In this document: piece by piece, positions 2,835-36,178 of the stretch | How positions within the stretch are numbered: position 1 is the stretch's first letter | How the letters are laid out: every line of letters begins with the position of its first letter | IMG/VR virus record: IMGVR_UViG_2695420793_000017 | Strand: one strand, 5' to 3' | DNA from: a virus | Lineage: Duplodnaviria; Heunggongvirae; Uroviricota; Caudoviricetes | Length of the DNA: 36,178 nucleotides | Notes under the pieces: model-generated | What the model was told of the DNA's origin: nothing | What the model saw: the letters and a program-made list of their open reading frames with translations, nothing else | Databases searched by the model: none | Made by a program: the position numbers and the translations under genes

Positions 2835-2855
2835 GGCGACAAAATGGCGGCAGCG
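2835..2855. repeat. putative attR core (GGCGACAAAATGGCGGCAGCG)
   Basis: 20/21 identical to 36140-36160 inside the 3' end of int; directly abuts the ogr stop codon. Confidence 0.5.
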
Positions 2856-3074
2856 TCAAAGAGAGAGCGCCACCTGCCCTGATTTCATTGGATGCGGCTG
2901 AACCGGATTTGACTCTTTTGGCGTTGCAATCGAACGAACAAAAGTTTCATGGGTAACAAAAGTATGGCTGCAGTTAATGTTCTGGCACTGGTTGTAACGC
3001 TCTTTGGTCAATGAAGATACCTGAAAACTGCTGCGAGTATGGGCGGCACTTCCACACAGTGGGCAAATCATCAT
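2856..3074 (-). CDS. ogr: late gene transcriptional activator Ogr (zinc finger)
   Basis: CPLCG...CQNINC zinc-finger pattern; aligns with P2 Ogr as recalled; start placed at the second Met because the listed ORF begins at a GTG. Confidence 0.8.
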   Translation of the reverse strand: MMICPLCGSAAHTRSSFQVSSLTKERYNQCQNINCSHTFVTHETFVRSIATPKESNPVQPHPMKSGQVALSL

Positions 3075-3164
3075 TTTTCGAGTTCTCCCCATTTTTGCTA
3101 AATTCACAACAATGATACCGCATTATTCCATTTTGCAAACTTAAAAGTTCTCCATTGCGAAGAA

Positions 3165-4265
3165 TCATTCCATTTCGAAATCATCAATCCTCACTTCAAG
3201 CTCCAGACTGGTCGTAAAACCGTTATCCGGGCTGACGGTATGCGTCAGAGTCGTAATGGTCCATTCCGCATCATCTATCGGCTGTTTAAAGCCACTGACT
3301 TTCACTGGCATTTCCGTGTAGAGATCTGCCCGCCCTTCCGCCAGTTGTAGCGAGAATGACGCAACGCCGCGTTGCAGGCGTTCCCACTGCATTTTCGCTG
3401 CCCGTTCGGCGTTACTCCGATTAGCATAGGTGCGATTAAGTACCAGCACGTTTTCATCCGTACCCACCAGGTAATCGCCCTGCTTCGCTTCCGGCTCTTT
3501 CTTCTGCTTCTTAGTCCTGCGCTTACGCTTCACCGCGGTGCTTTCTTTCTTCGCGGGTTCGCGGGTATGCAACCAGCTGGCAATTACGCCCGTGTAAGCT
3601 CCGCGATCTGCCAGGGTAAAGCGGTGACTGTCGCCGTCCTTACGTGTGATAGTGATAACCGGTAGTGGTTTACCACTGGCGCTTTTACCCTGCCCCTGTC
3701 GGATGAATAACAGATTGCCATTTTTCACCGACGCAATAGCACCGTACTGGCGCGCCAGCCGCATCAGAAAACTGCCGTCACTCTCATTGGTCTGGTCTAT
3801 ATGTTCCACGGGTTTATCTGACAGGTCTTTACCCAATGCCATCTTCAGTTTGTGCCGCGCAGCTATTTCCTTCACCACTTCCCCAACGGTGGTCTTGTGC
3901 CACGACTTTTCACGGCGGGTATTCAGTGTTTCACGAAAATCAGCACTTCGCGCCCGGATAGTCAGGCGATCCGGTGCGCCAGTGTGTTCAATCTCGTCCA
4001 CCGTGAATGCCCCTTTCGGGAAAAGCAGCTGCCCCTTCCAGCCCAGCGCCAGCGTAATGACCGCACCACGGCGCGGCAGCACGATTTTTCCATCGGCGTC
4101 GTCCAGTTCCAGATCAAGCTGGTCCGCTTCAAAGCCCCGGTTATCCGTCAGCGTAAGCCCCATCAGGCGGTTGTCCAGCACAGTAGTGATATCCCTGCCT
4201 TCAATACTGATGCTGAATGCCGGAGTTTTGTTGCCTTTGTTAAGCAGTTCAGAGCTGAAATTCAC
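3165..4265 (-). CDS. D: tail protein D (late control D)
   Basis: 366-aa ORF at the P2 gpD position; translation resembles the gpD family. Confidence 0.8.
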   Translation of the reverse strand: MNFSSELLNKGNKTPAFSISIEGRDITTVLDNRLMGLTLTDNRGFEADQLDLELDDADGKIVLPRRGAVITLALGWKGQLLFPKGAFTVDEIEHTGAPDRLTIRARSADFRETLNTRREKSWHKTTVGEVVKEIAARHKLKMALGKDLSDKPVEHIDQTNESDGSFLMRLARQYGAIASVKNGNLLFIRQGQGKSASGKPLPVITITRKDGDSHRFTLADRGAYTGVIASWLHTREPAKKESTAVKRKRRTKKQKKEPEAKQGDYLVGTDENVLVLNRTYANRSNAERAAKMQWERLQRGVASFSLQLAEGRADLYTEMPVKVSGFKQPIDDAEWTITTLTHTVSPDNGFTTSLELEVRIDDFEME

Positions 4266-4747
4266 GACAGCAGCCCTCCCACCGTTTTACTGATATCGCT
4301 TAAGGCAGACGTTGCCGTGTCCTGCAGATTATTCAGTTGAGTACTGAGATCACCGAACATATCGGACAGGGATTCATCCACCCGTTTTAGCGAAAGGGTG
4401 AACTCAATCCTGCGCGGCATACCGTCGCGGAAAAACTCCGTTTTAGTCTGATTCAGTCCCTCAATCACATACATGCCATAAATCGTGCCGCTGCCTTCAA
4501 TCAGGGGCCATGCTTTCCCCTGTTCTGCCATCTGCTCCAGTGCCAGCAACGACAGCCTGCCACCTGTTATCTCCGGCATAAGAACACCGGAAAGCGTCAG
4601 CATGTCGTTGTCCGGTCCCAGAAACTGCGTGGACGGACGTCGGTTTACCCGGCTGTTTGCCGCATGTCGCCAGCTGCGCTGATACTGCAGCTCCTGATAC
4701 GGCACGGTGCGCAGCATAAACACGTACAATCCCAGCACCATCATCAT
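4262..4747 (-). CDS. U: tail protein U
   Basis: 161-aa ORF; start codon overlaps the gpT stop; P2 gpU position and size. Confidence 0.8.
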   Translation of the reverse strand: MMMVLGLYVFMLRTVPYQELQYQRSWRHAANSRVNRRPSTQFLGPDNDMLTLSGVLMPEITGGRLSLLALEQMAEQGKAWPLIEGSGTIYGMYVIEGLNQTKTEFFRDGMPRRIEFTLSLKRVDESLSDMFGDLSTQLNNLQDTATSALSDISKTVGGLLS

Positions 4748-7700
4748 GCGTCGTATCCCCCCTGATCGCTGTAGTTACTCCTGGCTTTTGCCTTCAGCCT
4801 GCGTTCACGTTCATCAAGCTGGCGGGCCACCTCCCGCGCAATATCCTGCGCACTTTGTCCTGGCTGCGTCTGGATGATGATCTGCGTCGGTGCCTCAATC
4901 CTGTAAACAGGCGGCACAGTGGCTGCGCGACTCACAATTGCTTCTCCACCTTTCGTGGGAAGTGCCAAAGGGTGCAACGGTGGAAGCTCTGCTGGCGCGG
5001 CAGCAACGCCCATCATTCCGGCAACAACGGCAGCCAGTGCAGCTGTATTTCTCCGGCTGGTCACATTTGCCGGGCCGTTAACAATTTCCGGCCCGTTTTC
5101 ACCGACGATGCCAAACTGCCCGCGCGGGATATACCCGCCGCTGTCATACATCCCCGCAAAGCCATATCCCCATGATGGAAAACCACCCGATGGCATCATC
5201 ACTTTACCGTCTGCATTCACCGTCGCAGGTTGCTGACGCGTCACGCTTTCCGGCAGTTTTGCCTTTGCGGCCTCTTTACTGACAATGCCGAGTTTATCCA
5301 GCAACCAGGAAACGCCGGATTTCAGGGAGTCCAGCGGATGCATGACCATATTCAGCCCTTCCGCCAGTGCCTCCCCGAATCGCCGCCCCATTGCCGCTGC
5401 ACTCTGCAGTTCGGCAGAGGTCGACTTAACGGGCGTCAGCAGATCAGTAAACCAGCCCCACAGCGCCTGTACTTTGTCGCCAATCCACTGAAACACAGGC
5501 TTAAGTGGTTCGAATGCAGCACTGATGGGAGCTGCCGCCGCTTTGAATCCTTCAACCACGCCACCGAGAAATGCGGTGATGGGTTGCCAGTATTTCCAGA
5601 CAACCAGCGCCACGCCCGCCAGTGCAGTAACCACAAGACCTATCGGACTGAGCAGAGCACCTAACAGACCAGATATGGCATACAGGGCAACGCGCAGCAT
5701 CGCCAGCGGACCAGATGCAAGCACACGAAGCACCGCGCCTGCGGCAGCCAGTCCACCGCGCAGTACCGCCAGAGGATTCATAAACATCACAGCAACAGCA
5801 CGTAAAGCGGATAATCCAGACCGCAATAGTGCAACCGGCGCACCTGCTACAGTTTTCAGGACATTTCCCGTCAGTGATGCCGTACGGCGCAAAGACGACA
5901 ACGGCGCAGTAAGTAAACCCGCTGCGTTACCCGATGAAGCAAGCCCGCGTCGCAGCACTGCCAGTGGAGCGCCAGCCAGCCAGGACAACGCGCTGCTGGT
6001 TCGTGTTACTGCTGCCGTAACGGAAGGTAACGTTTTGATGCCCAGCACAGAGAATCCCAGACGGATGACTGCCAGCGGCCCCAGCACTGCAGCCAGCGCC
6101 ACAGCCAAGATGCCGAGGCCTACGGTAACCGCAGCCACAATAGCGGCTACTTTCATCAGTGTGCCCGTCAGTTCCGGGTTAGCTTCCACCCAGCGACGCA
6201 ACGCCCCCGTGACGCTTTTCACCGTGTACAGAATATCCATCAGCGGCTGGCGCAGCGTTTCGCCCAGGCTGCTGAAGGTGTTCTGCGCTCCGGTTTTGAC
6301 CAGCAACCACTGAGCAGAAAGTGAATCCTTGTTAATGTCGGATTCTTTCTGCATGGAGCCGAGCGCATCATTGCCCGCTGTCAGTTTTAACTGACGCTGC
6401 AGTTCCGGCAGGTTGTTTGCCAGTTTCGCCGCGTCATCGCCAAACTCTTTACCAAACAACATAGTCATGGCAGACAGGCGCTTGTCCTGCGGCAGCGCGT
6501 TTACCTTCTCCAGCACGCGCTGGATGGTTCCCATCGCATCCTTCGTCATCTGCTTTTCAATCACTTCAGGATTGAGTTTCAGCAGATTCATCCCTTCAAA
6601 GAAACTCTTGCTTTGCATGGTGGCAATGGACAATTCACGCACCATCGCGTTTGCTGCACTGGCTGCAACCTCCGGCGCAGCACCCAGAGTCAGGAAGGTG
6701 GAACCCAGCGCCGCCGCTTTACGATAATCGAGACGGTCAGCCACACCGCCCAGACGTTGCATCACATCGATGATGTCTGCCCCTTTCGACATTGCGTTAT
6801 CATCCAGATAGTTCAGCGCATCACCGAGCTGTTCAATATTGCGGGTAGGTATTTTGTAGAGCTGGGCGATTTTCCCCAGACTTTCTGACAGTTCATCCGC
6901 TGGCAGCTCAAAGGCTGTTGCCGCCTTCGCCGCCGTACTGGCGAAGGCCAGCAGGTCACGTTTCTGGTCTTCCCAGCTGTCGTCAGGATTTGCGACGTTC
7001 ATGCGCGCACCACCTTCAACCAGTGCAGCGAAGTCCACCGCACCGTTTTCCATCGGCAACTGTTCGCTGGCAGCTTTGATGGCATCCTGCATTTCATAAA
7101 AACGTGCAGTGCGGTTGCCATTATCGTCACGCAGACCATTGACCTGCTTTGCCACACCTTTCATGGCATCTTCCATGCTGGTATAGCTTTTTACTGCCGC
7201 CATCACTGGCGTCCCCATTGCCAGCCCTGCAGCCGTGGTGGTGGCTCCGGCTCCTGCGATGCGATCGCGCACCTCCAGCGAACGGGCATAACTGGCACGC
7301 GCTGCATTCATCCTGCGCTGAGCTTCCCCCAGTCGCTTCAGCCGCGCCTCCTGTTTCGACAGTTCCTGGTTATAACGTGATGTTTCACGGGCTAAACGGG
7401 CAGTTGCTCCCGCATCGTCTTTCGCAGAAATTCCCGCCCGGTACAGTTCAGCACGCACAAGCGCCGTCTGCTGCTGCAGCTTTTTCTGGCGTTCTTCCAG
7501 GCGCTGAACAGCCAGCCGTTGACGGCCCAGAGCAACAACCTGACGTTGCGAAGGCGGCCCCATCGCTCCCAGTTCCTGACTGAGCAAATTTGCACGCTGG
7601 CGGGCATAGTTCAGCCTGTCGCCTAATTTCTGATTTTCTGCCTGCAGCTTTCGGAAGCTGTCCAGACTGCTCCCGGCCTGATCAAGCTGCTTTATTGCAT

Positions 7701-7821
7701 CGCGGGATTTTTTGACAGCAGCAGCCAGTTCTCTTGAACTGGCCTGCGCAGATCGAAATGGGCGGGTGAGCTTGTCAACCGCATTAAGAATGACCTGCAG
7801 ACGCAGGTTGTTATCACTCAT
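4744..7821 (-). CDS. T: tail tape measure protein T
   Basis: 1025-aa Ala/Leu-rich ORF with a coiled-coil N-terminus, immediately downstream of E/E'. Confidence 0.85.
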   Translation of the reverse strand: MSDNNLRLQVILNAVDKLTRPFRSAQASSRELAAAVKKSRDAIKQLDQAGSSLDSFRKLQAENQKLGDRLNYARQRANLLSQELGAMGPPSQRQVVALGRQRLAVQRLEERQKKLQQQTALVRAELYRAGISAKDDAGATARLARETSRYNQELSKQEARLKRLGEAQRRMNAARASYARSLEVRDRIAGAGATTTAAGLAMGTPVMAAVKSYTSMEDAMKGVAKQVNGLRDDNGNRTARFYEMQDAIKAASEQLPMENGAVDFAALVEGGARMNVANPDDSWEDQKRDLLAFASTAAKAATAFELPADELSESLGKIAQLYKIPTRNIEQLGDALNYLDDNAMSKGADIIDVMQRLGGVADRLDYRKAAALGSTFLTLGAAPEVAASAANAMVRELSIATMQSKSFFEGMNLLKLNPEVIEKQMTKDAMGTIQRVLEKVNALPQDKRLSAMTMLFGKEFGDDAAKLANNLPELQRQLKLTAGNDALGSMQKESDINKDSLSAQWLLVKTGAQNTFSSLGETLRQPLMDILYTVKSVTGALRRWVEANPELTGTLMKVAAIVAAVTVGLGILAVALAAVLGPLAVIRLGFSVLGIKTLPSVTAAVTRTSSALSWLAGAPLAVLRRGLASSGNAAGLLTAPLSSLRRTASLTGNVLKTVAGAPVALLRSGLSALRAVAVMFMNPLAVLRGGLAAAGAVLRVLASGPLAMLRVALYAISGLLGALLSPIGLVVTALAGVALVVWKYWQPITAFLGGVVEGFKAAAAPISAAFEPLKPVFQWIGDKVQALWGWFTDLLTPVKSTSAELQSAAAMGRRFGEALAEGLNMVMHPLDSLKSGVSWLLDKLGIVSKEAAKAKLPESVTRQQPATVNADGKVMMPSGGFPSWGYGFAGMYDSGGYIPRGQFGIVGENGPEIVNGPANVTSRRNTAALAAVVAGMMGVAAAPAELPPLHPLALPTKGGEAIVSRAATVPPVYRIEAPTQIIIQTQPGQSAQDIAREVARQLDERERRLKAKARSNYSDQGGYDA

Positions 7822-8250
7822 CGTTGGCCCCGCTTCTCTGAATCGCTTTATACCGCCATTCCAGCACTTCGGTCAGCGGCATAACGTCAGTAACGGATGG
7901 CGGCCAGTGAAAAATGGTGGCGATATCTGCCACCAGATCGTCAACCGTCAGGCTGTCGGTAAACCGGCAAGCACCGACTTCTTCAACAAAAAAGTGACAA
8001 CCTCAACCGACATGGCAGTGAGATCTGCCGGGTCCATCTCTGCAATTTCCTGTGCAGTCAGTGCCGGGCTGGAGATGCGGGGGATCACGGTCATCATCGC
8101 GTTCACATCCATATCCATAATCGCCTGCAGGCGTGTACCGCGCAGCGCACCGGAATGCGGTTTGCGCAGCACAATTTCGGTGATTTCTGTTTTACCACGC
8201 TTGATAGGGGTATCCAGTTGAATGGTCTTTTCAGTCTGCTTATCGCTCAT
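7814..8250 (-). CDS. tail assembly chaperone E+E', predicted -1 frameshift product (about 145 aa)
   Basis: heptamer T_TTT_TTG at 7993-7987 (minus strand) in the E frame; the -1 frame stays open for 57 codons to a TGA at 7816-7814 that overlaps the gpT ATG. Confidence 0.7.
7948..8250 (-). CDS. E: tail assembly chaperone E
   Basis: 100-aa ORF between FII and T; contains the T_TTT_TTG slippery heptamer near its 3' end. Confidence 0.8.
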   Translation of the reverse strand: MSDKQTEKTIQLDTPIKRGKTEITEIVLRKPHSGALRGTRLQAIMDMDVNAMMTVIPRISSPALTAQEIAEMDPADLTAMSVEVVTFLLKKSVLAGLPTA

Positions 8251-8304
8251 TTTGCTGTCCTGTAAATTAGGTTCTGGCGCGGTATTCCGCGCCGTTCAGA
8301 TACA

Positions 8305-8820: not shown

Positions 8821-8829
8821 GTTGTCCCC

Positions 8830-10002: not shown

Positions 10003-10078
10003 AGTGGCGAACCTCCTGATTGGATTAGGCTTCGCCCTATGTTGAAGTGATTGTGCCTGACAAACAGCTAAGCGCAGT

Positions 10079-10096
10079 TGTACCGTTATTCACACA
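10079..10096 (-). promoter_or_regulatory. putative Ogr-dependent late promoter element (TGT-N12-ACA dyad) upstream of FI
   Basis: TGTaccgttattcacACA, centred about 85 nt upstream of the FI ATG; P2 late promoters carry this dyad (recalled). Confidence 0.5.
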
Positions 10097-10136
10097 AAAT
10101 AACGGTATTTGTCCGCTTGCAGGAAAAATCTCTGCA

Positions 10137-10162
10137 TTTTTATAAACGTTGGTTTAGGAGAT
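10137..10162. promoter_or_regulatory. putative serine-invertase crossover site (gix/hix-like), left
   Basis: TTTTTATAAACG-TT-GGTTTAGGAGAT resembles the hix/gix 12-2-12 sites as recalled; its reverse complement shares a 10/12 half-site and the core with 11683-11708. Confidence 0.45.
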
Positions 10163-10515
10163 GCGGCAAAAAAAATGTTGGCACTGGTTCCGGACAGATT
10201 CCGGACATGTCTTCATTTGGTAATCAGCGAGCCGATTCGGGGTATCAATACCTGCCAGGCGGGTTAATTCTTCAATGGGCAATAGCCAAAACGAAAACAT
10301 CCCCAGAAACAGTATCATTCCCGATTGCGTTTCCAACCAGGGCGCTATGTGTTGTTGCAACAGACCAGAGTGTTGGGGGTACAGGTCAAGGTTTTGCGTT
10401 AACCGCCCAGAATTTTACGAGAACTAATTTCCAGCTACGCGCTTATCAGACAGGAACCAACGCTGAATCATCCATCGGCGCTGGCGGGTTTAACTATTTT
10501 GCTGTGGGGTATTAA
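10151..10515 (+). pseudogene. alternative tail-fibre C-terminal cassette, silent in this orientation and out of frame at an A8 tract
   Basis: the frame ending ...PGGLILQW...FPIAFP...FAVGY is homologous to the C-terminus of H; it has no in-frame 5' continuation unless a -1 shift occurs at A8 (10168-10175). Confidence 0.55.
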
Positions 10516-10518
10516 TAA

Positions 10519-10950
10519 ATGGCTTATTTTTATTCAGCATTAAATAACGCTTTCTACCCTGATGAGCTCAGAGATGTTTATGAAGCGAGTAGAAACTGGC
10601 CTGACGATCTCATAGCCGTCTCAGATGAGACATTCACTGAATATTCGGGGATGCCACCAGAGGGTAAAACTCGTGGAGCTACTGAGGATGGAATGCCGGC
10701 ATGGGTAGACATTCCACCTTTAAGCCATGAGGAGGAAATCGCAGCAGCTGAAGCTGAAAAACAGTATCGTATCGATCAGGCTAATGAGTATATAAACAGC
10801 AAGCAGTGGCCGGGTAAAGCTGCGCTGGGGCGACTTACAGACGACGAGAAGGCCCAGTATAACGAGTGGCTGGATTATCTCGATGCGCTGGAATCTGTGG
10901 ACATATCCAGCGCACCAGATATCAACTGGCCTGAGTCGCCGGAGGAGTAG
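10519..10950 (+). CDS. tail fibre assembly protein, alternative copy (tfa')
   Basis: 143-aa ORF homologous to the minus-strand tfa (shared ...AFY.DEL..., ...WPDD..., ...ALAEAEK... patterns); convergent with and overlapping it at 10922-10950. Confidence 0.7.
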
Positions 10951-11353
10951 GCCAGTCCGGGTCTGCTGTATCAACTCGCATCAGCAGCACCCGGTATTTT
11001 TTCCATTCGGCTAATGAAACAGTTTCTTCTTCCGTCGCGATCCCCGCATCAACGGCGTCCTGCCGCCATTCTATTTCAGAGTCAGCTGAAGCACGCAGTC
11101 GCGATTTTTCGGCTTCTGCCAACGCAATAATTTCCTCTTCAGTTGGTTCGGGAATATCTATCCATTCAGGTAAACCATCAGAATTAGGAGCGCGTAATTT
11201 TCCGTTAGGTGATTCTCCGGCAAACTCAACGAATACGGAATAGTCTACTTCAACGGCATCGTCAGGCCAGCTACCTGCATTTTCATAAATACTTTTTAGC
11301 TCATCAGCGTAGAACGCATTTTCTTTTGCAGAATAAAACATATTAATCACCAT
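10922..11353 (-). CDS. tail fibre assembly protein (gpG-like)
   Basis: 143-aa ORF immediately downstream of H; the P2 G position. Confidence 0.8.
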
Positions 11354-12744
11354 CCAATCGCGAAAACTCTAAAGCCACCGTAGCCAGCACATGTAATCTG
11401 AGTTCTTGTTACCGTCGTATAGTATGATCGGCCCACCGCTAAGCTATATGCGGCTGTAGAACTCAAATCAACTGCCCCAGTTGATACATCACTAAATAAC
11501 GGAATCATGCACTCATTTGGGAATGCAATAGGGAAATTCGCAGTTACTGGTGTCACATAATCAGTTGTAGCAGCACCAAACCACTGCAATATGATCACCC
11601 GTTCTTTCCCGGCGACCATTGCCGGGATAGTCATATAGCCTGTAGAGCCGGTCACACACACCGCTGCGCCTAATTTTGCTCCCTCTCCCAAACCAAGGTA
11701 TGCGAGAAGACCAGCTACATCCTTTCCACTCAAATTAGTCAGCGTATTGTCCAGCGGTTGTTTACCTGCCAGCGCATTAAGCATTGTCGTGGCAAAGTTC
11801 GGGTCATTCCCCAGCGCCGCAGCCAGTTCGTTCAGTGTATCCAGTGCAGCAGGTGCAGACCCCACCATTGCCGCAATTGCCGATTTCACAAAAGCCGTGG
11901 TGGCAATCTGTGTATTGTTAACCGACTGTGCGGCAGTGGGGGCTGTTGGCGTTCCGGTGAGTGCCGGACTTGACAGCGACGCTTTCAGTGCCAGCGCATT
12001 GTTAATGGTGGTACTGAATTTCGGGTCATTATTAATGGCAGCGGCAATTTCTTTCAGCGTATCCAGTGTGGCTGGCGCACCATTAATAAGGGCCATCAGT
12101 GCCGCCTGAACAAACGCGGTGGTCGCAATCTGCGTGGTGTTATTCCCCTCCGCTGGCGTTGGCGCTTTGGGTGTTCCGGTCAATGTCGGGCTTTCTTTGG
12201 GTGCATACTGTGAATGCGGGTCCGGTGCGGCAAGATGTTTTGCCATCTTATCATCCACGAACACCTTCAGCTCCAGTACCTTGTCATCCACATACTTGCG
12301 GGTTGCCAGCACGACGGCAGGGTCGATTTTCAGGGTGATATTGTCCGTGCTGCTGGTAATCAGCACCATGCGCACGGTCTGGGTGCGCCCGCTGCCTTCA
12401 GCCAGTTGCGGCTTATAGCTTTCCGGGCAGTTGCCTACGGCAATCAATGCCCCGGACTCATCAAACAGACCCACTTCACGTATCCACCAACCACCCTCAT
12501 TTTCAGGGATCACCTGTTCAGCAATAATCTGGCTGCTGTTCTGTGGGTCGATATAGAGCATATTCAGCGCAGCCCGACGTTTCTCATTTACCAGTGCACT
12601 CTGCTTTGCGTCCGGCGTCGGCAATGTTCCGCCACCATCGCCCACCGCCATATGGGTAATTTTTAGCGGCACACCGAGCGCGGCGGCGCTGGCAAGTTTC
12701 GCCGCGCCAATATCCGTCAGCAGGGTATAAAATTTTGTGCTCAT
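11347..12744 (-). CDS. H: tail fibre protein H
   Basis: 465-aa ORF with a conserved N-terminus, internal repeats and a variable C-terminus; start overlaps the gpI stop. Confidence 0.85.
11683..11708. promoter_or_regulatory. putative serine-invertase crossover site (gix/hix-like), right, inside H
   Basis: CTCTCCCAAACC-AA-GGTATGCGAGAA; lies in the H codons for AYLGLGEG at the constant/variable junction. Confidence 0.45.
11755..12192. repeat. tandem duplication of about 219 bp (about 73 aa) inside H
   Basis: two protein modules ...LTGTP.APT...[11 protein letters not shown]...APA.LDTL.E.AAA..NDP.F.TT..NALA.K in tandem (H residues about 185-257 and 258-330); boundaries approximate. Confidence 0.6.
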
Positions 12745-15232: not shown

Positions 15233-15236
15233 AAGA

Positions 15237-24019: not shown

Positions 24020-25270
24020 TTATCGCCATTTTAGATAAAAAGCAAAAAATGGATCAGTAATATGCAACTTTCGGTCCTCCTTATCCCAATCTATTACAGG
24101 AGTTGAAGCTTCTTCCGTAGCAGCTATTTTAGCCATTTTTTCTATAACACGAGTAACCTCATGAGCTTGTGGAGGAGCATCTTGCACCAGTTCGCGTATG
24201 GCTGATCTTAACTCCTCATACTGAATACTTTGCATTCCTGGTTTCATATGTGACAATGCATATAATACAACTTTATATATATCTACTTCCTCACCACTTT
24301 TCAGTTTTCTAGGAATTCTGTCAGTTCGCTGATTAGGGCCACTAGCTAACTTATCAAATACTATTTTCCCAGTGGATTCTGCAACCTTTCTAAAAATATC
24401 ATCATCTAAAGAATTAATAACTAACTTACTCGGCAAAGTTTCTTTAACATTATTTACTAAGCATATAGCCTTGCAAAACTCTTGCATTAAATGAGGGCTT
24501 CCCAATGATTCATTGGCAATTTTATCAATTACTGAATCACTAACTTCCATGTTTAACAGAGGAAATCCCACTTTTGCTATTTGTTTTAGTTCATCCATTT
24601 CCCACGAAGGCATGGAAATATTTTCTAGCCGTCCGGTAATTTCTTTTTCAACTTTTACAGCATCATATCTTCGATGTGGAATGGCTATCAGTACAACTGG
24701 TACTCCATCAAAAACTAATGGTTTTATCGCTCTAATAAAGTTACCTTGTAGGTCACGATCAAGGTAATGAAAGTCATCAATTATAAGACTAGACTTGGTT
24801 TGAGAGAGAACTTTTAGTGCAGAACTTTTTGCGGATATCGTTCGCGATTTTTTATTACCATTTGACTTTCCATCCGTCTGAACTAAACCAGCCTCACCTG
24901 TACCTTTAACAACGAATGCACTTGCGGTCCCCGATACCTTACCACTAACTGCAATAGCACTATTTTCTCCAGAATTAACTTCAATACTATGGTAGCCATT
25001 TAGTTTTTCTAATACCTGCTCCCAAATATCATCTTCAGTTGTAATACTCCCACCGTCAATCCATACAACATCATCGTCCATAACTGGGAATACCATTCTT
25101 GTAATTACAGTCTTACCAGACTTTGTTTGCCCAGTTAAAGTCACTAACTTACATAAATTATCTTTAGCACTCTCCAGTTTTCCATGAACCTCTCCTTCAG
25201 AGCGCTCAACATAAGTCAATTTCGGCATACCGCCAGGCACAAAAACTTGTGAAGCACGTTGTTTATCCAT
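24020..25270 (-). CDS. P-loop NTPase of unknown function (accessory gene, candidate anti-phage defence)
   Basis: 416-aa ORF; Walker A GQTKSGKT and Walker B-like LIIDDFHYLDRD; visibly AT-rich versus neighbours; lies between cos and Q. Confidence 0.8.
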   Translation of the reverse strand: MDKQRASQVFVPGGMPKLTYVERSEGEVHGKLESAKDNLCKLVTLTGQTKSGKTVITRMVFPVMDDDVVWIDGGSITTEDDIWEQVLEKLNGYHSIEVNSGENSAIAVSGKVSGTASAFVVKGTGEAGLVQTDGKSNGNKKSRTISAKSSALKVLSQTKSSLIIDDFHYLDRDLQGNFIRAIKPLVFDGVPVVLIAIPHRRYDAVKVEKEITGRLENISMPSWEMDELKQIAKVGFPLLNMEVSDSVIDKIANESLGSPHLMQEFCKAICLVNNVKETLPSKLVINSLDDDIFRKVAESTGKIVFDKLASGPNQRTDRIPRKLKSGEEVDIYKVVLYALSHMKPGMQSIQYEELRSAIRELVQDAPPQAHEVTRVIEKMAKIAATEEASTPVIDWDKEDRKLHITDPFFAFYLKWR

Positions 25271-25378
25271 GAATACTTCCCAATTAACACAGTTCTAGTG
25301 AACTACGATTCTAAAATAACATCTGAGCTTGGACAATTAACATTACATGATTTGAGTATTCAAAGCCACAAGCGCGCG

Positions 25379-25397
25379 CTCGTATCCCCGCCACGCC
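25379..25397 (-). other. putative cos cohesive-end sequence
   Basis: minus strand reads GGCGTGGCGGGGATACGAG, matching the start of the P2/186 cohesive ends as I recall them; exact 3' part differs. Confidence 0.5.
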
Positions 25398-25776
25398 TGC
25401 CCGCTTTATGCAGTGGTTTTCATGCACATGCATGACATGAGCAAAAGCCCGCCAGTTCTGGCGGATCTGAGCAAAGACGATCCTCAATCGATCATGCGAT
25501 TTCATGCAGCATAGTCATGCACTGTCAAGGAAGTGAAAATCCGTATCTGAATGGCCACTTGAAAAACGGATCATACGGGTTTACAAAGATGAATGTTCGC
25601 TGTGAACGGGAAGCGGAAGTTAGCTTTCAGATAACATAATCCATATGCACGAGAACCTCTAAAATAGAATGGGACACCTAAGCGGGGTACTTACAACGAT
25701 TCTTTCCATATTCACAGTTAACACTCTGTTTGGCGTATTTTTATTCAAATAGCAAACACCAATAAAAGGAGTTTCC

Positions 25777-26112
25777 ATGAACAATATTCCCCCTATACCA
25801 CAGTTAGGAATTTATGTCTCAAAAATCGATCCCACCCTACGTATCACTGTAACCGATGTTGATATTGTTGATGGTGAGGATGATTCTCCTGATGATGAAT
25901 TGTTTTATTTAGTCCACTGGATCGAGGGGGAAGATGAAAGTGATATGACAGCAATGGGATTTGAGCTAGACCCAGTAGAGTGGCAGGCTTTCGTTGAATC
26001 TGAGCAATTAGTGTTTGAGCGTGATCCGTACATGGATTCAATCCCCGAAAATTCAAACTTGGCAAAGATTCGGGATTTTCTCATGAAGACTAAACAGAAT
26101 GATCATTCGTAA
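25777..26112 (+). CDS. highly acidic hypothetical protein (possible DNA mimic)
   Basis: 111-aa ORF; AAAGGAG Shine-Dalgarno 7 nt upstream; about 26 Asp/Glu versus about 7 Lys/Arg by hand count. Confidence 0.65.
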   Translation: MNNIPPIPQLGIYVSKIDPTLRITVTDVDIVDGEDDSPDDELFYLVHWIEGEDESDMTAMGFELDPVEWQAFVESEQLVFERDPYMDSIPENSNLAKIRDFLMKTKQNDHS

Positions 26113-26538: not shown

Positions 26539-26548
26539 AAAAGTCACC

Positions 26549-26737: not shown

Positions 26738-26777
26738 CTTTCCTCCTATGACACCAAAACAATACTGTATACATAAC

Positions 26778-26797: not shown

Positions 26798-26889
26798 TAT
26801 AATAATCTTACTGATGTAAAACGTTTTTTTACGTTCATCGGCCTGATATGCCTGGTATTATTAAGAGCACGAATTGTTAACCCGCGTAA

Positions 26890-30621: not shown

Positions 30622-30682
30622 TTCTCCTGAATTTAGATAAAGGGATGCCTGGCGGGTTTACGCCATGAATTTCATTAGTTGG

Positions 30683-31024: not shown

Positions 31025-31046
31025 AATTCATATCCCCAAAACGCAA

Positions 31047-31271
31047 CTATCGTTCTTTGTTCTTACGGTAACGCTCAAGGGGAGATACATTTTTTCGTAC
31101 CGTCTCTTTAACCTGCTCTCCCCGTAAAAACGTCCCATCCTTTAGTGTGAAAAAGTAACTGCCATCGCCCGACAACGACGGATAACAACAGAGCAAATCA
31201 TCTTCAGGTACTGAATAACTATCCCCTCTGTAACGAAACTGATAAACCACTTCACTTTCTGCCGCATACAT
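31047..31271 (-). CDS. hypothetical early protein
   Basis: 74-aa ORF; overlaps an alternative-frame ORF (31142-31384) that starts inside the 60-bp repeat, so which frame is real is unresolved. Confidence 0.35.
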   Translation of the reverse strand: MYAAESEVVYQFRYRGDSYSVPEDDLLCCYPSLSGDGSYFFTLKDGTFLRGEQVKETVRKNVSPLERYRKNKER

Positions 31272-31361
31272 TTGGACTTTCTCCGTTTCCTCGTGGTCAC
31301 TTCAGACAGCAATTCATCTTGTGAATAACATGGATGCCAGCGTTTACCATCCTCACCCATG

Positions 31362-31421
31362 ATCCAGCCGTGACCGTAGTGCATTGCCGGGCTTTGTTTT
31401 ACCAGCAGCGATGCAAATGAT
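31362..31421. repeat. 60-bp direct repeat, copy 1
   Basis: 59/60 identical to 32165-32224; on the minus strand it carries an ATG and the first codons MHYGHGWI. Confidence 0.8.
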
Positions 31422-31511
31422 TGTGCCGGGAATTTTTCTACACGCCCGGCGCGTGCCTCAGTGGTAGACTATTTGTGCTAACAATCATCTACCCCTCAAA
31501 GGAGAAAACTG

Positions 31512-31592
31512 ATGTCAGAAACAGACAACTTTCATGTACTCCCTCGCCCGGCTCCAGCACCTCAGCCTGAACCGGGGCAAGAGAAGAAATAG
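31512..31592 (+). CDS. possible 26-aa proline-rich leader peptide
   Basis: ATG with AAAGGAG 7 nt upstream; MSETDNFHVLPRPAPAPQPEPGQEKK; stop 9 nt before the next ATG; below the ORF-track size cut-off. Confidence 0.3.
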   Translation: MSETDNFHVLPRPAPAPQPEPGQEKK

Positions 31593-31601
31593 GAATCCGG
31601 C

Positions 31602-32060
31602 ATGACTAAACAAAGCTCCGAATACTTCCAATTACACTACTGTTATTACCTTGAACTAATGACAGCAACGTTCCATGGTCGAGCTGATAAATTAATGACA
31701 GCAATCCAACTTATAAGCGGAACAGCTGTATTTGCTAATACAGGTCTGGAATGGTTGTTCGCTTTTCCTGTTGTTGTAATCGCAACAATCCAACTTGTAT
31801 GGCAACCAGCTATTATTGCGGAACGAGCAAGCATACAAAGCCGACAATATGGTGAGTTGCTTTACGCCGAGGATGAATTGTCTCCACAGTTCATTGCACA
31901 AAAATTGAAAGCTTTGCATCACTCTGACTCCACAACATTCGGATCTTTGTTAAACCCTGCCTACAAAAGAGCTGCTATTGCCTGTGGTCGGGTTGACGAT
32001 GTAAACCTCAGCTTCCAAGAAAAACTTTTCGCTTGGTTCGCAGGTTGTTTGCCACGTTAA
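31602..32060 (+). CDS. hypothetical membrane protein (moron, opposite strand to the early operon)
   Basis: 152-aa ORF with a hydrophobic segment; AGGAAT Shine-Dalgarno; lower GC by eye; bracketed by the 60-bp direct repeats. Confidence 0.55.
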   Translation: MTKQSSEYFQLHYCYYLELMTATFHGRADKLMTAIQLISGTAVFANTGLEWLFAFPVVVIATIQLVWQPAIIAERASIQSRQYGELLYAEDELSPQFIAQKLKALHHSDSTTFGSLLNPAYKRAAIACGRVDDVNLSFQEKLFAWFAGCLPR

Positions 32061-32164
32061 CCATAAATCTTTGTAGGAATCGCTTTTTATTTCTTCCCCG
32101 GTAAGCCTGTTGCCGGGGTTGTAATTCAAAACTTGGATGCCACTTTTTCCCACAAGGTAAATAA

Positions 32165-32224
32165 ATCCAGCCGTGACCGTAGTGCATTGCCGGACTTTGT
32201 TTTACCAGCAGCGATGCAAATGAT
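32165..32224. repeat. 60-bp direct repeat, copy 2
   Basis: 59/60 identical to 31362-31421; immediately downstream of cII. Confidence 0.8.
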
Positions 32225-32248
32225 GGTTCTTTCGTCAGCATAAGCACC

Positions 32249-32758
32249 TCACAGCAAACCGAATGAAGCACCGAGGCCAGTCACGGTATCAACTGCACTC
32301 GCCATCGCAGGATTAGCCTGTAAACGGGCCTGCAATGAAACAGCAGCCAGCGCCATCAGTCGTGTTACAGAGTTAATGCTGCTGATAGCATCACGACGAC
32401 CGGCACTAGTTTTTACATCACCAGATACCGCACCTGCTGCAACACGTCCGATCTCTGCAGTTGCGCTCATGACGTAATGCGGCAGTTTCTCTTTTGCAAC
32501 CTCATTAATCGGTACACATGGCAGGCAGTGAATCTGTGCCAGAAAACCATCTACCAGCGTTGAATCTTCAGTCAGATCGGTAAGCAGCCAGATTTCTGGT
32601 GCAGTTAATAAATGAGGTTGAGATGGGTTCAGCTTGTTCCGCAGAATCTGCACATTCATGCCAGCACGTTCTGCCAGTTGCACCAGGTTGTGGCGCAATG
32701 CGAATGCACGACAGGCTTCATCAAAATGTGGATGTTTGGAAACTTGGTAATCAAACAT
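32249..32758 (-). CDS. cII: CII-like lysogeny establishment regulator (186 type)
   Basis: start set at [19 protein letters not shown]..., which matches the N-terminus and length of phage 186 CII as recalled. Confidence 0.75.
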
Positions 32759-32790
32759 GGTCGATACCCCTGATGTATCCCAAAATGGAA

Positions 32791-33012
32791 CTAGTTGAAT
32801 ACAACATTGCAATCAGTAAGTGCATCAACGGTAAGAGCAGCAAGGTTGATCATCACCTTTTCTCTTTTCTTGTCTTTCCGAAGGCGATGCCGAGGGATGC
32901 GACCGTCAGCCAGCATATCGTTAATTGTATCGATTGAAAGACCAGTAAGTTCGCTATAACGCTCAATTGTGACATGTGGCGTATTCAGAGTTATTGAAAT
33001 GTTAGGGGTCAT
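32791..33012 (-). CDS. apl: Apl/Cox-like excisionase and transcriptional regulator
   Basis: 73-aa HTH-like ORF divergent from cI and first gene of the lytic operon. Confidence 0.65.
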
Positions 33013-33100
33013 GATGCAACATCTCCTATTGGCTTGTGGTGAGCCGGTTTGAATTGTGACCAGAACTTCACAAAACGGAGATTAGGATCTCATAACGGTT

Positions 33101-34039
33101 ATGTCAACTCAAAAAAACACATTTCGCCATATTAGCGAGAGTCTAAAAACTTCAATAATGCAAAACCGTGGGGGACAGAAAGTAATTGAGCGTATACTTG
33201 CTGCGTATGGTTTTACTTCGCGGCAAGCATTTTGCAATCATCTGGGTATCTCACAAAGCACGATGGCTAACAGGTATGCTCGTGACACATTTCCTGCTGA
33301 CTGGGTGATAATTTGCAGTATAGAGACCGGCGCATCTATCGACTGGTTGGCATCGGGAATCAGCTGTGAATCATCCTCAGTTTTATTAAATGATGAACGT
33401 TTAGCCCATACCAAATCTGATGACCTGGATAGAACTAACTCAATAGCCCAAAAGTTCCCAATCGAGACCAGCATAAATCCTAATAAAGGAGGGAAGGCGG
33501 CAATTGATCGCTTAGTCGCAGCCTACGGCTTTAGCACCCGACAAGCCCTAGCAAACCATTTGCAGGTTTCAAAAAGCACTGTAGCAAACAGGTACTTACG
33601 AGACACGTTTCCTAGCGATTGGATCATTCAATGCGCTCTTGAAACAGGAACTTCATTACTCTGGCTCACAAACGGCAATGGCCCCAAATTTATCGATAAT
33701 TCCAGCTCTGTAGCCCAACTTAAACACCAAACAATCATTGACGGTAAATTACATGATGAAGGCTACTTAGCATTTGACAAGACGCTTATACCTTCCGGAT
33801 TGAAAAAACCTATTGGAGTTACCGCAGAAGGAAAAACCTTTATTGCAGATACAGAATATGATGATGTTTCAGATGGTAGTTGGTTGATTGAGATTGAAGG
33901 TAAAGTAAGTTTAAGAAAATTAACAAGAATTCCAGTTGGAAAAGTAAAAATCACATCAGATACAACTGATTTTGTTTGTAAGCTTGAAGACATTACAACC
34001 ATCGCAAAATGTTGTTGCGTTTTTTCAAAGGAAATTTAA
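33101..34039 (+). CDS. cI: CI-like immunity repressor with a tandemly duplicated N-terminal DNA-binding domain
   Basis: 312-aa ORF; two homologous modules (...ERILAAYGF.SRQAFCNHLGISQSTMANRYARDTFPADW... and ...DRLVAAYGFSTRQALANHLQVSKSTVANRYLRDTFPSDW...) followed by a C-terminal domain. Confidence 0.75.
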   Translation: MSTQKNTFRHISESLKTSIMQNRGGQKVIERILAAYGFTSRQAFCNHLGISQSTMANRYARDTFPADWVIICSIETGASIDWLASGISCESSSVLLNDERLAHTKSDDLDRTNSIAQKFPIETSINPNKGGKAAIDRLVAAYGFSTRQALANHLQVSKSTVANRYLRDTFPSDWIIQCALETGTSLLWLTNGNGPKFIDNSSSVAQLKHQTIIDGKLHDEGYLAFDKTLIPSGLKKPIGVTAEGKTFIADTEYDDVSDGSWLIEIEGKVSLRKLTRIPVGKVKITSDTTDFVCKLEDITTIAKCCCVFSKEI

Positions 34040-34049
34040 AGGAACATAC

Positions 34050-35039
34050 ATGAATTCTGAAAATAAAAAAAATGAAAACAACGATTATGTTGAAAAAGTT
34101 AATTGCGAATGGAAAGATCTTTATAATATTTTAAATGAAAATCTGCATAAATTTAATGAAAATGAACGCGCCTACTTAGTCGACTTATTAAAAAAAGGTG
34201 AACTTGATAAATTCAGAGAATACTACTGGAAATTAGCCCAGCAAGAAAAAATGAACTACAGCGATAAAGCTGGAGATATTTTTATTAATGAAAACAATAA
34301 GATAGATGAATTAATAAAAGAACAAAAACATCTTCGAGAGATAATGCGATCATATACCAAACGTTTATTGGAGGCTGAAGAGTCCAAAGCTACGTTACAT
34401 CTTCGGAATGAGAATTTAGAAAAACTAAATTCTGAAAAAGAAGCAATTATTGAGCAAGCCGTATCTAGAATAAAGCAACTTGAAGCATCTAACAGCGAAT
34501 TACAAAGCCGAGTACAACAAGAAAGGATTGATGAGAAAATACCAGGATATGTCGATAGCGTTAAAAGTGAACTAAGTTCAGATGACTTATATTTCATTAA
34601 AATGTCGCAAGTATGGGCTTTTACTGGCTGCATTTTTGGGCTACTTGCTGTATGTGCATCATTTTATACACTCTACGCCACAATTGACTTCAACAATGTT
34701 AAAGGCTTTGAGCTATTTTATTTTTTCACACGTGGTTTAATTGGTATTTCCATTCTTTCTTGGCTAGCATATATTTGCCTTGGCAACTCTAAAAAATATA
34801 CCCATGAATCAATTTTGAGAAAAGATAGAAGACATGCACTAATGTTTGGGCAAGTATTCCTGCAAATTTATGGTTCCACGTCAACAAAAGAAGATGCTGT
34901 GTTAGTCTTTAAAGACTGGAATATGTCTGGTAACTCTGCATTTTCTGACAAAACAGAACTCCCTCCGGGAATCCAATCTTTATGGGATTCAACCAAAGAA
35001 AAACTAAAGCCAAGTACCGCTGAAAAAGCACAGGAGTGA
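34050..35039 (+). CDS. hypothetical coiled-coil/two-TM protein (AT-rich moron between cI and int)
   Basis: start set at MNSENKK (AGGAA Shine-Dalgarno); Lys/Glu/Asn-rich coiled-coil N-half, two hydrophobic helices; strongly AT-rich by eye. Confidence 0.7.
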   Translation: MNSENKKNENNDYVEKVNCEWKDLYNILNENLHKFNENERAYLVDLLKKGELDKFREYYWKLAQQEKMNYSDKAGDIFINENNKIDELIKEQKHLREIMRSYTKRLLEAEESKATLHLRNENLEKLNSEKEAIIEQAVSRIKQLEASNSELQSRVQQERIDEKIPGYVDSVKSELSSDDLYFIKMSQVWAFTGCIFGLLAVCASFYTLYATIDFNNVKGFELFYFFTRGLIGISILSWLAYICLGNSKKYTHESILRKDRRHALMFGQVFLQIYGSTSTKEDAVLVFKDWNMSGNSAFSDKTELPPGIQSLWDSTKEKLKPSTAEKAQE

Positions 35040-35074
35040 GGCCAATGTTTATTTCACCCTAAACATACATTGAT

Positions 35075-35094
35075 AACTGTTTAAATATACAGTT
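35075..35094. promoter_or_regulatory. LexA-box-like palindrome upstream of int
   Basis: aACTGTttaaatatACAGtt = CTGT-N8-ACAG; function uncertain. Confidence 0.35.
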
Positions 35095-35100
35095 AAATTT

Positions 35101-35125
35101 AGCCCTCTGATATGAGGGCTTTTTT
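35101..35125 (+). terminator. rho-independent terminator abutting the int start
   Basis: AGCCCTC-tgatat-GAGGGCT hairpin followed by TTTTT immediately before the int ATG at 35126. Confidence 0.55.
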
Positions 35126-36178
35126 ATGGCAGTACGAAAACTCACCACAGGAAAATGGCTTTGCGAATGTTACCCTGCCGGACGTAGTGGACGTCGTGTG
35201 CGTAAACAATTCGCCACCAAAGGCGAAGCTCTGGCTTTTGAGCGTCACACGATGGAAGAAACCGAAGCAAAACCCTGGCTGGGTGAATCAGTGGATCGTC
35301 GAACACTGAAAGACGTGGTTGAACTATGGTTCAAACTACATGGTAAATCTCTGACAGCTGGGCAGCATGTCTATGACAAATTGCTGTTGATGGTTGACGC
35401 TCTGGGAAATCCCATTGCAACCGATCTCACCTCTAAAATGTTTGCCCACTATCGAGATAAACGCCTGACAGGAGAGATCTACTTCAGCGAAAAATGGAAG
35501 AAAGGAGCAAGCCCGGTCACCATTAACCTGGAGCAAAGCTATCTTAGTAGTGTTTTTAGCGAACTATCCCGCCTGGGCGAATGGTCGTATCCGAACCCAC
35601 TGGAGAACATGCGAAAATTCACCATCGCAGAAAAAGAGATGGCATGGCTTACCCATGAGCAGATTGTTGAATTACTGGCTGATTGCAAACGTCAGGACCC
35701 AATTCTGGCACTGGTAGTTAAGATATGCTTAAGCACAGGCGCACGCTGGCGTGAAGCTGTAAATCTTACCCGCTCACAGGTGACCAAATACCGAATTACC
35801 TTTGTAAGAACGAAGGGGAAGAAAAACAGAAGCATCCCTATCAGTAAAGAACTTTACGAAGAGATCATGGCGCTTGATGGGTTCAATTTCTTCACAGACT
35901 GCTATTTTCAATTTTTATCTGTGATGGGAAAAACGTCTATCGTGCTCCCTCGCGGTCAACTGACACACGTTCTGCGCCATACGTTTGCGGCGCATTTCAT
36001 GATGTCGGGTGGAAATATCCTTGCTTTGCAAAAAATCCTCGGACATCACGACATAAAAATGACTATGCGTTACGCACATCTGGCACCGGATCATCTGGAA
36101 ACGGCGCTCCGTTTCAATCCTCTGGCAACGCTGCCAAGTGGCGACAAAGTGGCGGCAGCGGTTGGCATTACCCCGTAA
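35126..36178 (+). CDS. int: tyrosine integrase (P2/186 type)
   Basis: 350-aa ORF; C-terminal ...HVLRHTFA...GHHDIKMTMRYAHL fits the tyrosine recombinase catalytic region; stop is the last codon of the window. Confidence 0.85.
   Translation: MAVRKLTTGKWLCECYPAGRSGRRVRKQFATKGEALAFERHTMEETEAKPWLGESVDRRTLKDVVELWFKLHGKSLTAGQHVYDKLLLMVDALGNPIATDLTSKMFAHYRDKRLTGEIYFSEKWKKGASPVTINLEQSYLSSVFSELSRLGEWSYPNPLENMRKFTIAEKEMAWLTHEQIVELLADCKRQDPILALVVKICLSTGARWREAVNLTRSQVTKYRITFVRTKGKKNRSIPISKELYEEIMALDGFNFFTDCYFQFLSVMGKTSIVLPRGQLTHVLRHTFAAHFMMSGGNILALQKILGHHDIKMTMRYAHLAPDHLETALRFNPLATLPSGDKVAAAVGITP
36140..36160. repeat. putative attL core (GGCGACAAAGTGGCGGCAGCG) inside the int 3' end
   Basis: 20/21 identical to 2835-2855. 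Confidence 0.5.

Follow-up and report, generated by a model that had tools for sequence, protein, structure and literature searches.

The prophage in the analyzed DNA is very probably integrated at the 3' end of the gene for the small RNA RybB, between ybjL and rcdA, by crossover within a 14-bp core, and the 21-bp direct repeats near its ends, which an initial annotation took for the attachment cores, are most likely arm-type sites predicted to bind the phage integrase (Int). The window (i.e., the whole 36,178-nt stretch analyzed, positions 990-37167 of L001) is 100% identical to the corresponding region of strain Ecol_224. With the RefSeq annotation of that strain, the body of a P2/186-like prophage could be delimited from 2779 to the window end at 36178 and on to window-equivalent position 36266 (unstranded; 33,488 bp with one core copy counted), flanked by ybjL and rcdA.

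Insertion site and att core

The prophage genes are in P2-type order, with int at one end and ogr at the other, in the arrangement ybjL-rybB-prophage-rcdA. The late-gene activator ogr is the first prophage gene on its side (2856..3074, minus strand; Pfam Ogr_Delta, 5e-22, and Ecol_224 RefSeq annotation), and a 186-type tyrosine integrase is encoded at the other end (35126..36178, plus strand; Pfam Int_N and Phage_integrase). Between cI and int lie a PDC-S59-like gene and an open reading frame of 329 aa, and no reverse transcriptase (i.e., no retron) is found in the annotation of Ecol_224, the strain identical to the window. These results agree with the initial annotation that a prophage of P2 size separates ybjL from its downstream neighbor (rcdA/ybjK), at a locus that is uninterrupted in K-12-type strains and also, as a rybB-rcdA site, in 4227 of 5426 complete E. 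coli genomes. In 1115 of the 5426 (~20%), ogr adjoins rybB; several distinct P2-like prophages occupy the site, and their turnover is frequent. The P2-like prophages of E. coli W, B and Crooks have been listed with "rybB ncRNA" as their insertion site (PMC3032704, Table 2), and both integration at rybB and the biology of arm-type sites are already known and ordinary.

The insertion had been described as 3' of ybjL, which is correct for the locus; however, what the phage targets there is an sRNA gene, at its 3' end, and not anonymous intergenic DNA. Host RybB spans 2700..2778 on the plus strand (Rfam RF00110, 105.3 bits, full length 1-79), and in the lysogen it is intact and agrees with K-12-type strains through GTT. 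The attachment core ATGGGTTTTTTGTT is formed by the final 14 nt of this gene and comprises the 3' end of the terminator stem and the U-tract. At the ogr-side junction this core occupies 2765..2778 (plus strand), as placed by attB/attL/attR/attP comparison, by the overlap of split halves and by the att annotation of phage 4LV2017, and it is the only core copy within the window. The second copy of ATGGGTTTTTTGTT lies at window-equivalent 36253-36266, 75-88 bp past the window end and upstream of rcdA, in the Ecol_224 flank; the right-hand host junction is thus outside the window.

The empty site of K-12-type strains reads GGTTGATGGGTTTTTTGTT followed directly by ATCTAAAAC, and the empty-site strain JME66 runs from RybB through GGTTGATGGGTTTTTTGTT into ATCTAAAACTTATCTACTACC (rcdA stop). 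The right flank in Ecol_224 starts 75 bp after the int stop and reads CATAAATGGGTTTTTTGTT joined to ATCTAAAAC. In the alignments, the left part of attL equals that of attB and the right part of attR equals that of attB, with ATGGGTTTTTTGTT present once in attB and attP and duplicated at attL and attR. When the predicted attP (attR-left plus attL-right) was compared with the stretch that runs uninterrupted from int to ogr in sewage phage KP12, the two aligned without gaps and with 9 mismatches in 278 positions, and the metagenomic contig L077 shows the same attP arrangement. Among the split genomes listed, the right piece begins at query position 137 (n = 2) and the left piece extends to 150 (n = 1), so that the 14-bp overlap of the halves (137-150) marks the core. 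The record of Klebsiella phage 4LV2017 likewise gives ATGGGTTTTTTGTT as attL/attR.

On the phage side, the core is followed by an imperfect extension (2779..2791, plus strand), in which GCCTGAAATTTAT matches host ATCTAAAACTTAT at 9 of 13 positions (alignments including L063 and L074). Some hosts carry a phage-like allele of this segment, extending the identity to 27 bp, and left-side homology to empty-site genomes stops at 2791 by megablast. A terminator scan called the phage hairpin at the int-side junction and made no call at the RybB terminator, because the loop of the latter exceeds the limit of the scan. Two further loci, L072 and L092, first resembled secondary-site integrations that might narrow down the crossover point in ATGGGTTTTTTGTT; on inspection, L092 was a variant of the phage in which a cargo gene for an HNH endonuclease starts directly after int.

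The 21-bp repeat and its tandem units

The repeat itself was found as reported, with GGCGACAAAATGGCGGCAGCG at 2835-2855 and GGCGACAAAGTGGCGGCAGCG at 36140-36160 in direct orientation, 20/21 identical and spaced 33,305 bp apart. No further copies occur in the window at ≤3 mismatches, and 0 of 100 dinucleotide-preserving shuffles contained a 21-mer match; by our own estimate, the chance of a 20/21 direct pair in 36 kb is ~0.01 (6.5e8 position pairs × 64/4^21). Beyond their edges the two copies are no longer similar, which gives the repeat sharp limits. Its left copy abuts the ogr stop and its right copy forms codons 339-345 (GDKVAAA) of the 350-codon int.

Orientation, identity, P2-sized spacing and a location at ogr and int, the terminal genes of a P2-type prophage, all speak for reading the 21-mers as att cores, with a prophage of 2835-36160 and crossover in the last int codons. 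We nevertheless give this reading practically no credence. The initial annotation expected the empty site to join ybjL to its neighbor through a single copy of the repeat, and named an empty site lacking the 21-mer, or junctions mapping elsewhere, as evidence to the contrary. Both were found: ybjL and rcdA are joined without any 21-mer in K-12-type strains and JME66, and the junctions lie at ATGGGTTTTTTGTT. No empty site was seen in which one 21-mer stands between rybB and rcdA. Host homology on the left stops at 2778-2791 rather than at 2834, and phage sequence continues for 75-88 bp past the int stop to the second core. In addition, the free-phage attP of KP12, where a core is expected once, carries both 21-mers (183 bp apart, with ATGGGTTTTTTGTT between them, as in L077), and phages with other cores (PSP3, 186) bear the same motif. 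The 21-mer as att core therefore fails on presence in attB, on the position of the host/phage switch and on single copy in attP. The left copy lies 56 nt inside the prophage from the junction (70 bp from the core, start to start) and the right copy 92 nt inside, with the second core starting 93 bp beyond its end; in attP, the two copies therefore flank the core.

Each 21-mer straddles a pair of tandem 11-bp units on the minus strand that we predict to be Int arm-type sites. The ogr-side pair (2831..2852) consists of TGCCGCCATTT (2842-2852) and TGTCGCCATCG (2831-2841) and is predicted from its match to the 186 consensus, and the int-side pair (36136..36157), consisting of TGCCGCCACTT (36147-36157) and TGTCGCCACTT (36136-36146), from consensus and position. 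The latter sits in the last int codons (338-345). On the minus strand the unit reads TGYCGCCAYTT, and the units are spaced by one helical turn, all antisense to int. Scored against the 186-type consensus (YAYCGCCAYTY / tgccGCCActt), TGCCGCCACTT, TGTCGCCACTT and TGCCGCCATTT each match at 10 of 11 positions and the core-proximal ogr-side unit TGTCGCCATCG at 8 of 11. Position 10, where the 21-mers have their sole mismatch (A/G), corresponds to a degenerate position in this consensus. A candidate third, inverted unit, GAGCGCCACCT, in the ogr 3' end (2865..2875, plus strand) is tentative, with the CGCCAC core only and a weaker match than the others; in phages 186 and GCS667, a third unit in inverted orientation is seen at about the same position. 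In the alignments, a tandem pair is present on each arm and absent from attB. The strict arm motif matches five times elsewhere in the window (8 matches in total vs 0.78 expected), so the motif alone is not diagnostic and the argument rests on position and tandem arrangement.

Arm sites were compared across phages at the sequence level. A scan of IMG/VR with Int returned 80 loci, nearly all 99% identical and ending at the int stop, which makes them of little use for conservation; L013, L063, L074 and L077 alone helped. Among five diverged ogr-side arms with this core, the only conserved elements are the core, an IHF consensus at +23..+35 and an invariant TGGCGACA at +56 from the core, with 25-36% identity between them. 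The other ogr-side unit (not TGTCGCCATCG) is degraded or lost in KP12 and L013, and therefore not every unit need be functional. Tandem GGCGACAAARTGGCGGCAG is found on both arms of PSP3, Midge, ev129, GCS667 and 186, of which ev129 has the same core and an Int of 86% identity, and the remaining four a different core and ~55% Int identity.

Given that the right copy is int coding sequence and that prophages at rybB turn over frequently, the left 21-mer might be a functionless relic of an int 3' end, derived from a previous prophage or from a duplication. However, similarity ends abruptly at the edges of the 21-mer with no extended int homology on the left, the 56-nt spacing to the core is fixed in arms otherwise only 25-36% identical, the left copy is present in free-phage attP, and the internal 11-bp tandem fits a published binding consensus. 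We consider a relic most improbable, and rejected it for the missing extended homology, the constant spacing and the left copy in attP.

It is also quite unlikely that the repeats bind another phage protein (CI repressor, a Cox/Apl-like factor or Ogr) in place of Int, even though P2-type attP regions also hold Cox/Apl and IHF sites. The motif tracks Int type (186-type N-terminal domain), whereas the repressors are unlike one another in size and architecture (lengths of 312 aa here, 192 aa for 186 and 286 aa for PSP3). In the early switch region (33013-33100), which must hold the binding sites of Cox/Apl and CI, no similar tandem occurs, and the matched sites are annotated for Int. Specifically, the RefSeq record of 186 (NC_001317) lists "predicted" Int arm-type recognition sequences (YAYCGCCAYTY), three on the left and two on the right; a literature search for experimental work on the 186 arm sites returned nothing beyond this annotation and PMC3448106. 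The Int studied here is 97-99% identical to those of KP12, 4LV2017 and vB_EcoM-813R9, 55% to 186 Int and 35% to P2 Int. By the N-terminal discriminator residues of Nilsson et al. 2011 (PMC3448106), it carries W11/E14/Y16, as do 186 and PSP3, vs Y/D/R in P2.

A proposed intasome and its consequences

An IHF-consensus site, AATCATGATGTTA (2801..2813, plus strand), with 12/13 matches to WATCAANNNNTTR and a conserved offset, separates the core from the ogr-side arm sites; the consensus recurs at equal offset (+23..+35) in the five diverged arms and is perfect in L013 and ev129. A function in IHF binding is predicted from the P2 and 186 annotations. Repeats of AACTTATTGT between int and the core are putative RDF or IHF repeats (a Cox/Apl-like protein is encoded by the ORF at 32791-33012), and the order of attP can be read as arm pair, putative RDF/IHF repeats, terminator/core, IHF site and arm pair.

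We propose that both copies of the 21-bp repeat serve as arm-type sites to which a heterobivalent tyrosine integrase binds. Its small N-terminal domain would grip these sites, and its core-binding and catalytic domains would grip the core. By bending the DNA at its conserved consensus between the core and the arm sites, IHF would allow the intasome formed on attP to capture bare attB, and recombination within the 14-bp ATGGGTTTTTTGTT would leave the core duplicated at both junctions. The arm pairs resemble a terminal direct repeat because one pair remains at each prophage end after integration. Since the int-side pair lies inside the int reading frame, bound Int could also act on int itself, e.g., as a roadblock or modulator of the cI-int transcript ending at the core hairpin, so that int expression would be coupled to assembly of the intasome; the five singleton motifs, for their part, might be weak Int sites with an architectural role. 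We regard these last two ideas as long shots.

For this prophage type, the longest terminal direct repeat is not the att core, and delimiting P2/186-type prophages by that repeat puts both boundaries off by 70-110 bp and misses the sRNA-gene target. The window ends exactly at the int stop, like most IMG/VR contigs of this phage, which suggests that the procedure delimiting these sequences cuts off the int-side junction. The rybB locus offers a clean and, at ~20% of complete E. coli genomes, very common case of an sRNA terminator used as attachment site with the gene restored.

Comparison with known attP regions

Phage 186 shares with this prophage an 11-bp unit with a CGCCA core, in tandem at an 11-bp period on both arms and antisense to int, as well as the order ogr/B homologue, arm, IHF, core, arm and int. 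Its Int is 55% identical with equal N-terminal discriminators, and its core likewise corresponds to the 3' end of a gene for a small structured RNA, and that gene is regenerated on integration. In contrast, 186 targets a tRNA-Ile gene and shares 36 bp with it (for RybB here the figure is 14 bp, rising to 27 in some hosts), has orf69 between arm sites and int (here, the int-side sites are within the int reading frame), and has A at position 2 of the unit, where G is found here.

For P2, the Int, Cox and IHF sites of attP have reportedly been mapped by footprinting (Yu & Haggard-Ljungquist 1993). They appear as protein_bind features in the P2 record (GenBank AF063097), in the same order as here: an int-side arm site in the last int codons, RDF sites, core, IHF site and an ogr-side arm site before ogr, with two tandem units 11 bp apart per arm. 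Unlike here, the P2 arm unit is tgTGGaCa, paired with a P2-type N-terminal domain (Y/D/R), Int identity is 35%, and core and host sites differ.

P2-like prophages known from the rybB site include Rybb*B with retron Ec86, Rybb*W and Rybb*Cr (PMC3032704). Together with 4LV2017 and KP12, these share the insertion site and core with the prophage described here and appear to differ from it in cargo genes. Phage lambda is more distant, with Xis as its RDF and with arm sites that lie outside int, are unrelated in sequence and differ in number and orientation. Its attP (P1, P2, P'1-P'3) nevertheless provides the model of a heterobivalent Int that bridges arm and core with IHF bending the DNA between them, and its arm sites, like those flanking the RybB core, are split between attL and attR.

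Prophage junctions at the RybB gene

A 21-bp direct repeat lies near the two prophage ends, with GGCGACAAAATGGCGGCAGCG at 2835-2855 and GGCGACAAAGTGGCGGCAGCG at 36140-36160 (both plus strand). The initial annotation had recorded the sequences, positions and orientation of both copies correctly; a search allowing up to three mismatches returned only these two matches in the window, and 0/100 dinucleotide-preserving shuffles contained one. The left copy adjoins the stop codon of ogr (2856-3074, minus strand; Pfam Ogr_Delta and RefSeq annotation), and the right copy encodes GDKVAAA near the C-terminus of the tyrosine integrase (int, 35126-36178, plus strand, 350 residues; Pfam).

The copies had been interpreted as att cores bounding a prophage in intergenic DNA 3' of ybjL. 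An Rfam scan instead identified an overlooked full-length RybB sRNA gene (2700-2778, plus strand, 105 bits) in the interval that separates ybjL from the left 21-mer. E. coli Ecol_224 (NZ_CP018948) matches the window at 100% identity, and the right flank absent from the window can be read from that strain: the int stop is followed by 74 nt, then ATGGGTTTTTTGTT, then ATCTAAAACTTATCTACTACC, the 3' end of rcdA (ybjK). In a prophage-free K-12-type strain, the empty site runs from RybB through GGTTGATGGGTTTTTTGTT directly into ATCTAAAACTTATCTACTACC and holds no 21-mer, which refutes the repeat as core. The window carries the identical RybB sequence with ATGGGTTTTTTGTT at 2765-2778, followed by GCCTGAAATTTATGCTG. 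Site alignment matched the left side of attL and the right side of attR to the corresponding sides of attB, with the 14-bp ATGGGTTTTTTGTT as the only sequence common to attB, attL, attR and attP. The true junctions lie at this core, and boundaries drawn at the 21-mers are misplaced, the left one by 70 bp and the right one by about 100 bp. The int-side junction falls at window-equivalent 36253-36266, 75-88 bp past the int stop and outside the window, and the prophage measures 33,488 bp with one core copy counted. The last base of the int stop codon is also the last base of the window, and most IMG/VR contigs of this phage (loci L014-L091) are cut at the same point, so the int-side junction is lost from sequences delimited in this way.

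The predicted attP (left part of attR plus right part of attL) aligned without gaps to the contiguous int-to-ogr segment of sewage phage KP12 (9/278 mismatches), and a metagenomic contig (L077) has the same int-to-ogr arrangement. Among 5426 complete E. coli genomes, the rybB site is uninterrupted in 4227, and ogr lies beside rybB in 1115. In the split genomes listed, the right half begins at query position 137 and the sole listed left half ends at 150, an overlap of 14 bp that is exactly the core. Both site and core were already known, as the GenBank record of Klebsiella phage 4LV2017 (98-99% Int identity to the window) annotates attL and attR as CAGGCAACAAAAAACCCAT, the reverse complement of ATGGGTTTTTTGTTGCCTG, and the genome paper on E. 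coli W names 'rybB ncRNA' as the place where the P2-like prophages of E. coli W, B and Crooks are inserted (PMC3032704).

The att core corresponds to the 3' half and U-tract of the RybB terminator. In the phage, the core copy makes up the 3' half of the hairpin AACCCATTTACATAAATGGGTT, with TTTTGTT behind it; a scan called this structure as a terminator downstream of int. Integration leaves the RybB gene unchanged: the stem remains RybB's own, and the core restores the U-tract. At two loci (L063 and L074, about 2387-2440), the allele downstream of rybB, GCCTGAAATTTAT, has the same sequence as the phage side, which lengthens the stretch common to attP and attB in those hosts from 14 to 27 bp; the shared stretch is 19-20 bp in Klebsiella. 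A variant phage (L092, 2330-3450; 99% Int identity) carries an HNH endonuclease gene directly after int, in place of terminator hairpin and core at that position. In some genomes an AAA ATPase comes next.

Predicted integrase arm sites

Both 21-mers are internal to the prophage, separated from the core by 56 nt on the ogr side and 92 nt on the int side, and thus flank the core in the circular phage with their starts 183 bp apart. With its immediate neighbours, each reads on the minus strand as a tandem pair of 11-bp units: TGCCGCCACTT (36147-36157) and TGTCGCCACTT (36136-36146) on the int side, TGCCGCCATTT (2842-2852) and TGTCGCCATCG (2831-2841) on the ogr side. For coliphage 186, RefSeq lists 'predicted Int arm-type recognition sequences' (consensus YAYCGCCAYTY; three sites left of attP, two right), and Nilsson et al. 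give tgTGGaCa for P2-type and tgccGCCActt for 186-type integrases (PMC3448106). The right 21-mer carries TGCCGCCACTT, a 186-type consensus match, exactly, and the single mismatch between the 21-mers sits on a degenerate (Y) position of YAYCGCCAYTY. Window Int is 55% identical to 186 Int and 35% to P2 Int; at three N-terminal positions proposed to discriminate arm-site type (PMC3448106), window Int, 186 and PSP3 have W, E and Y, and P2 has Y, D and R. The arm pattern matched eight times in the window (0.78 expected from shuffles). Five YRYCGCCAYTY singles outside attP (7851, 8902, 11061, 22006 and 24021) may reflect codon composition or weak sites.

Tandem GGCGACAAARTGGCGGCAG occurs on both attP arms in PSP3, Midge, GCS667 and 186 (about 55% Int identity, different cores) and in ev129 (86%, core as in the window), antisense to int in every case. 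Five ogr-side arms sharing the rybB core but otherwise diverged (window, KP12, strain 2c3, L013 and ev129) aligned without gaps. Across the four most diverged (window, 2c3, L013 and ev129), mean pairwise identity was 100% in the core, 71% in an IHF-consensus site (+23..+35 from the core end; window 2801-2813) and 65% in the arm units (+53..+74), with 36% between these two (+36..+52) and 25% beyond (+75..+100). The IHF-consensus site agrees with WATCAANNNNTTR at 12/13 positions in the window and at every position in L013 and ev129, and TGGCGACA within the arm units is unchanged in 5/5 arms. Constant spacing combined with sequence turnover between sites is the pattern expected of bound sites. 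We infer from consensus, position, conservation and annotated homologues that the repeat is an arm-site pair bound by Int, and that IHF binds the ogr-side arm. In L013 (2387-2560), int and core are identical to those of the window and the ogr-side arm differs, with a perfect IHF site and, at +56 from the core as in the other arms, a sole arm unit, TGGCGACA.

Cargo and other features

The interval from the portal gene to the replication region contains a 415-aa protein gene (24020-25270, minus) and small ORFs at 25311-25505 (minus) and 25777-26112 (plus). The 415-aa protein has weak AAA_22/TniB Pfam matches and a PADLOC match to candidate defence family PDC-S59 (2.9e-31); this interval is probably an anti-phage cargo slot of P2-like phages. 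The repressor-int interval also appears to be a variable cargo slot: it holds a 329-aa ORF here (34050-35039, plus; weak DUF2207_C similarity, no PADLOC match). In KP12 and 813R9 it is occupied by a 558-aa 'chromosome segregation ATPase', and PSP3 and Midge have a DUF2511 protein there. The CI-type repressor (33101-34039, plus) has 312 aa against 192 in 186. Pfam matches it to the Phage_CI_repr HTH domain in two stretches and also to Phage_CI_C; its N-terminal HTH may be duplicated.

The tail-fibre region (10078-12744) looks like a frozen invertible segment, with a 57-nt inverted repeat (77%; 10528-10584 and 11282-11338) common to two tail-fibre-assembly genes in convergent orientation, an orphan gp53-like fragment on the opposite strand and no annotated invertase. 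In L094, a related prophage, a serine recombinase is encoded next to the sheath gene at the corresponding place. The L094 record (NZ_CP148327, 42 kb, circular, deposited as 'plasmid') joins chromosomal potFGHI through ybjL-rybB to the ogr-to-sheath part of a rybB prophage, and represents an artefact of assembly or else a circle from aberrant excision. A 63-nt direct repeat (97%; 31362-31424 and 32165-32227) lies within two Fil-family genes flanking an opposite-strand 152-aa ORF (31602-32060) with no assigned function or PADLOC match, which may be a moron that entered a duplicated fil.

Proposed intasome and comparison with P2

This attP very probably serves a lambda/P2-style heterobivalent integrase system. 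The Int N-terminal domain would bind four (possibly five) arm units while its central and C-terminal domains would bind and cut within ATGGGTTTTTTGTT; with IHF bending the ogr-side arm, the resulting intasome would capture bare attB at the RybB terminator. Recombination would leave one arm pair at each prophage end, producing the apparent 'terminal direct repeat'. Between int and core, beyond the window, there are two AACTTATTGT(T/A)T repeats with a spacing of about 20 bp, which may be either IHF-like sites (12/13) or targets of the Cox/Apl-like protein that ORF 32791-33012 encodes.

The result is of value as a correction: the boundaries had been misplaced, the prophage targets an sRNA gene, and the repeat is read as an arm-site pair. 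It stays within what has been published on P2/186-type site-specific recombination, and the rybB site had been described before. The P2 GenBank record annotates Int, Cox and IHF binding sites in the order Int arm site in the last int codons, Cox sites, core, IHF, Int arm site and ogr terminator, with two TGTCCACA-type units 11 bp apart on each arm. Order and geometry are equal in the window phage, which differs in having the 186-type arm word for that of P2 and the RybB terminator for the P2 core.
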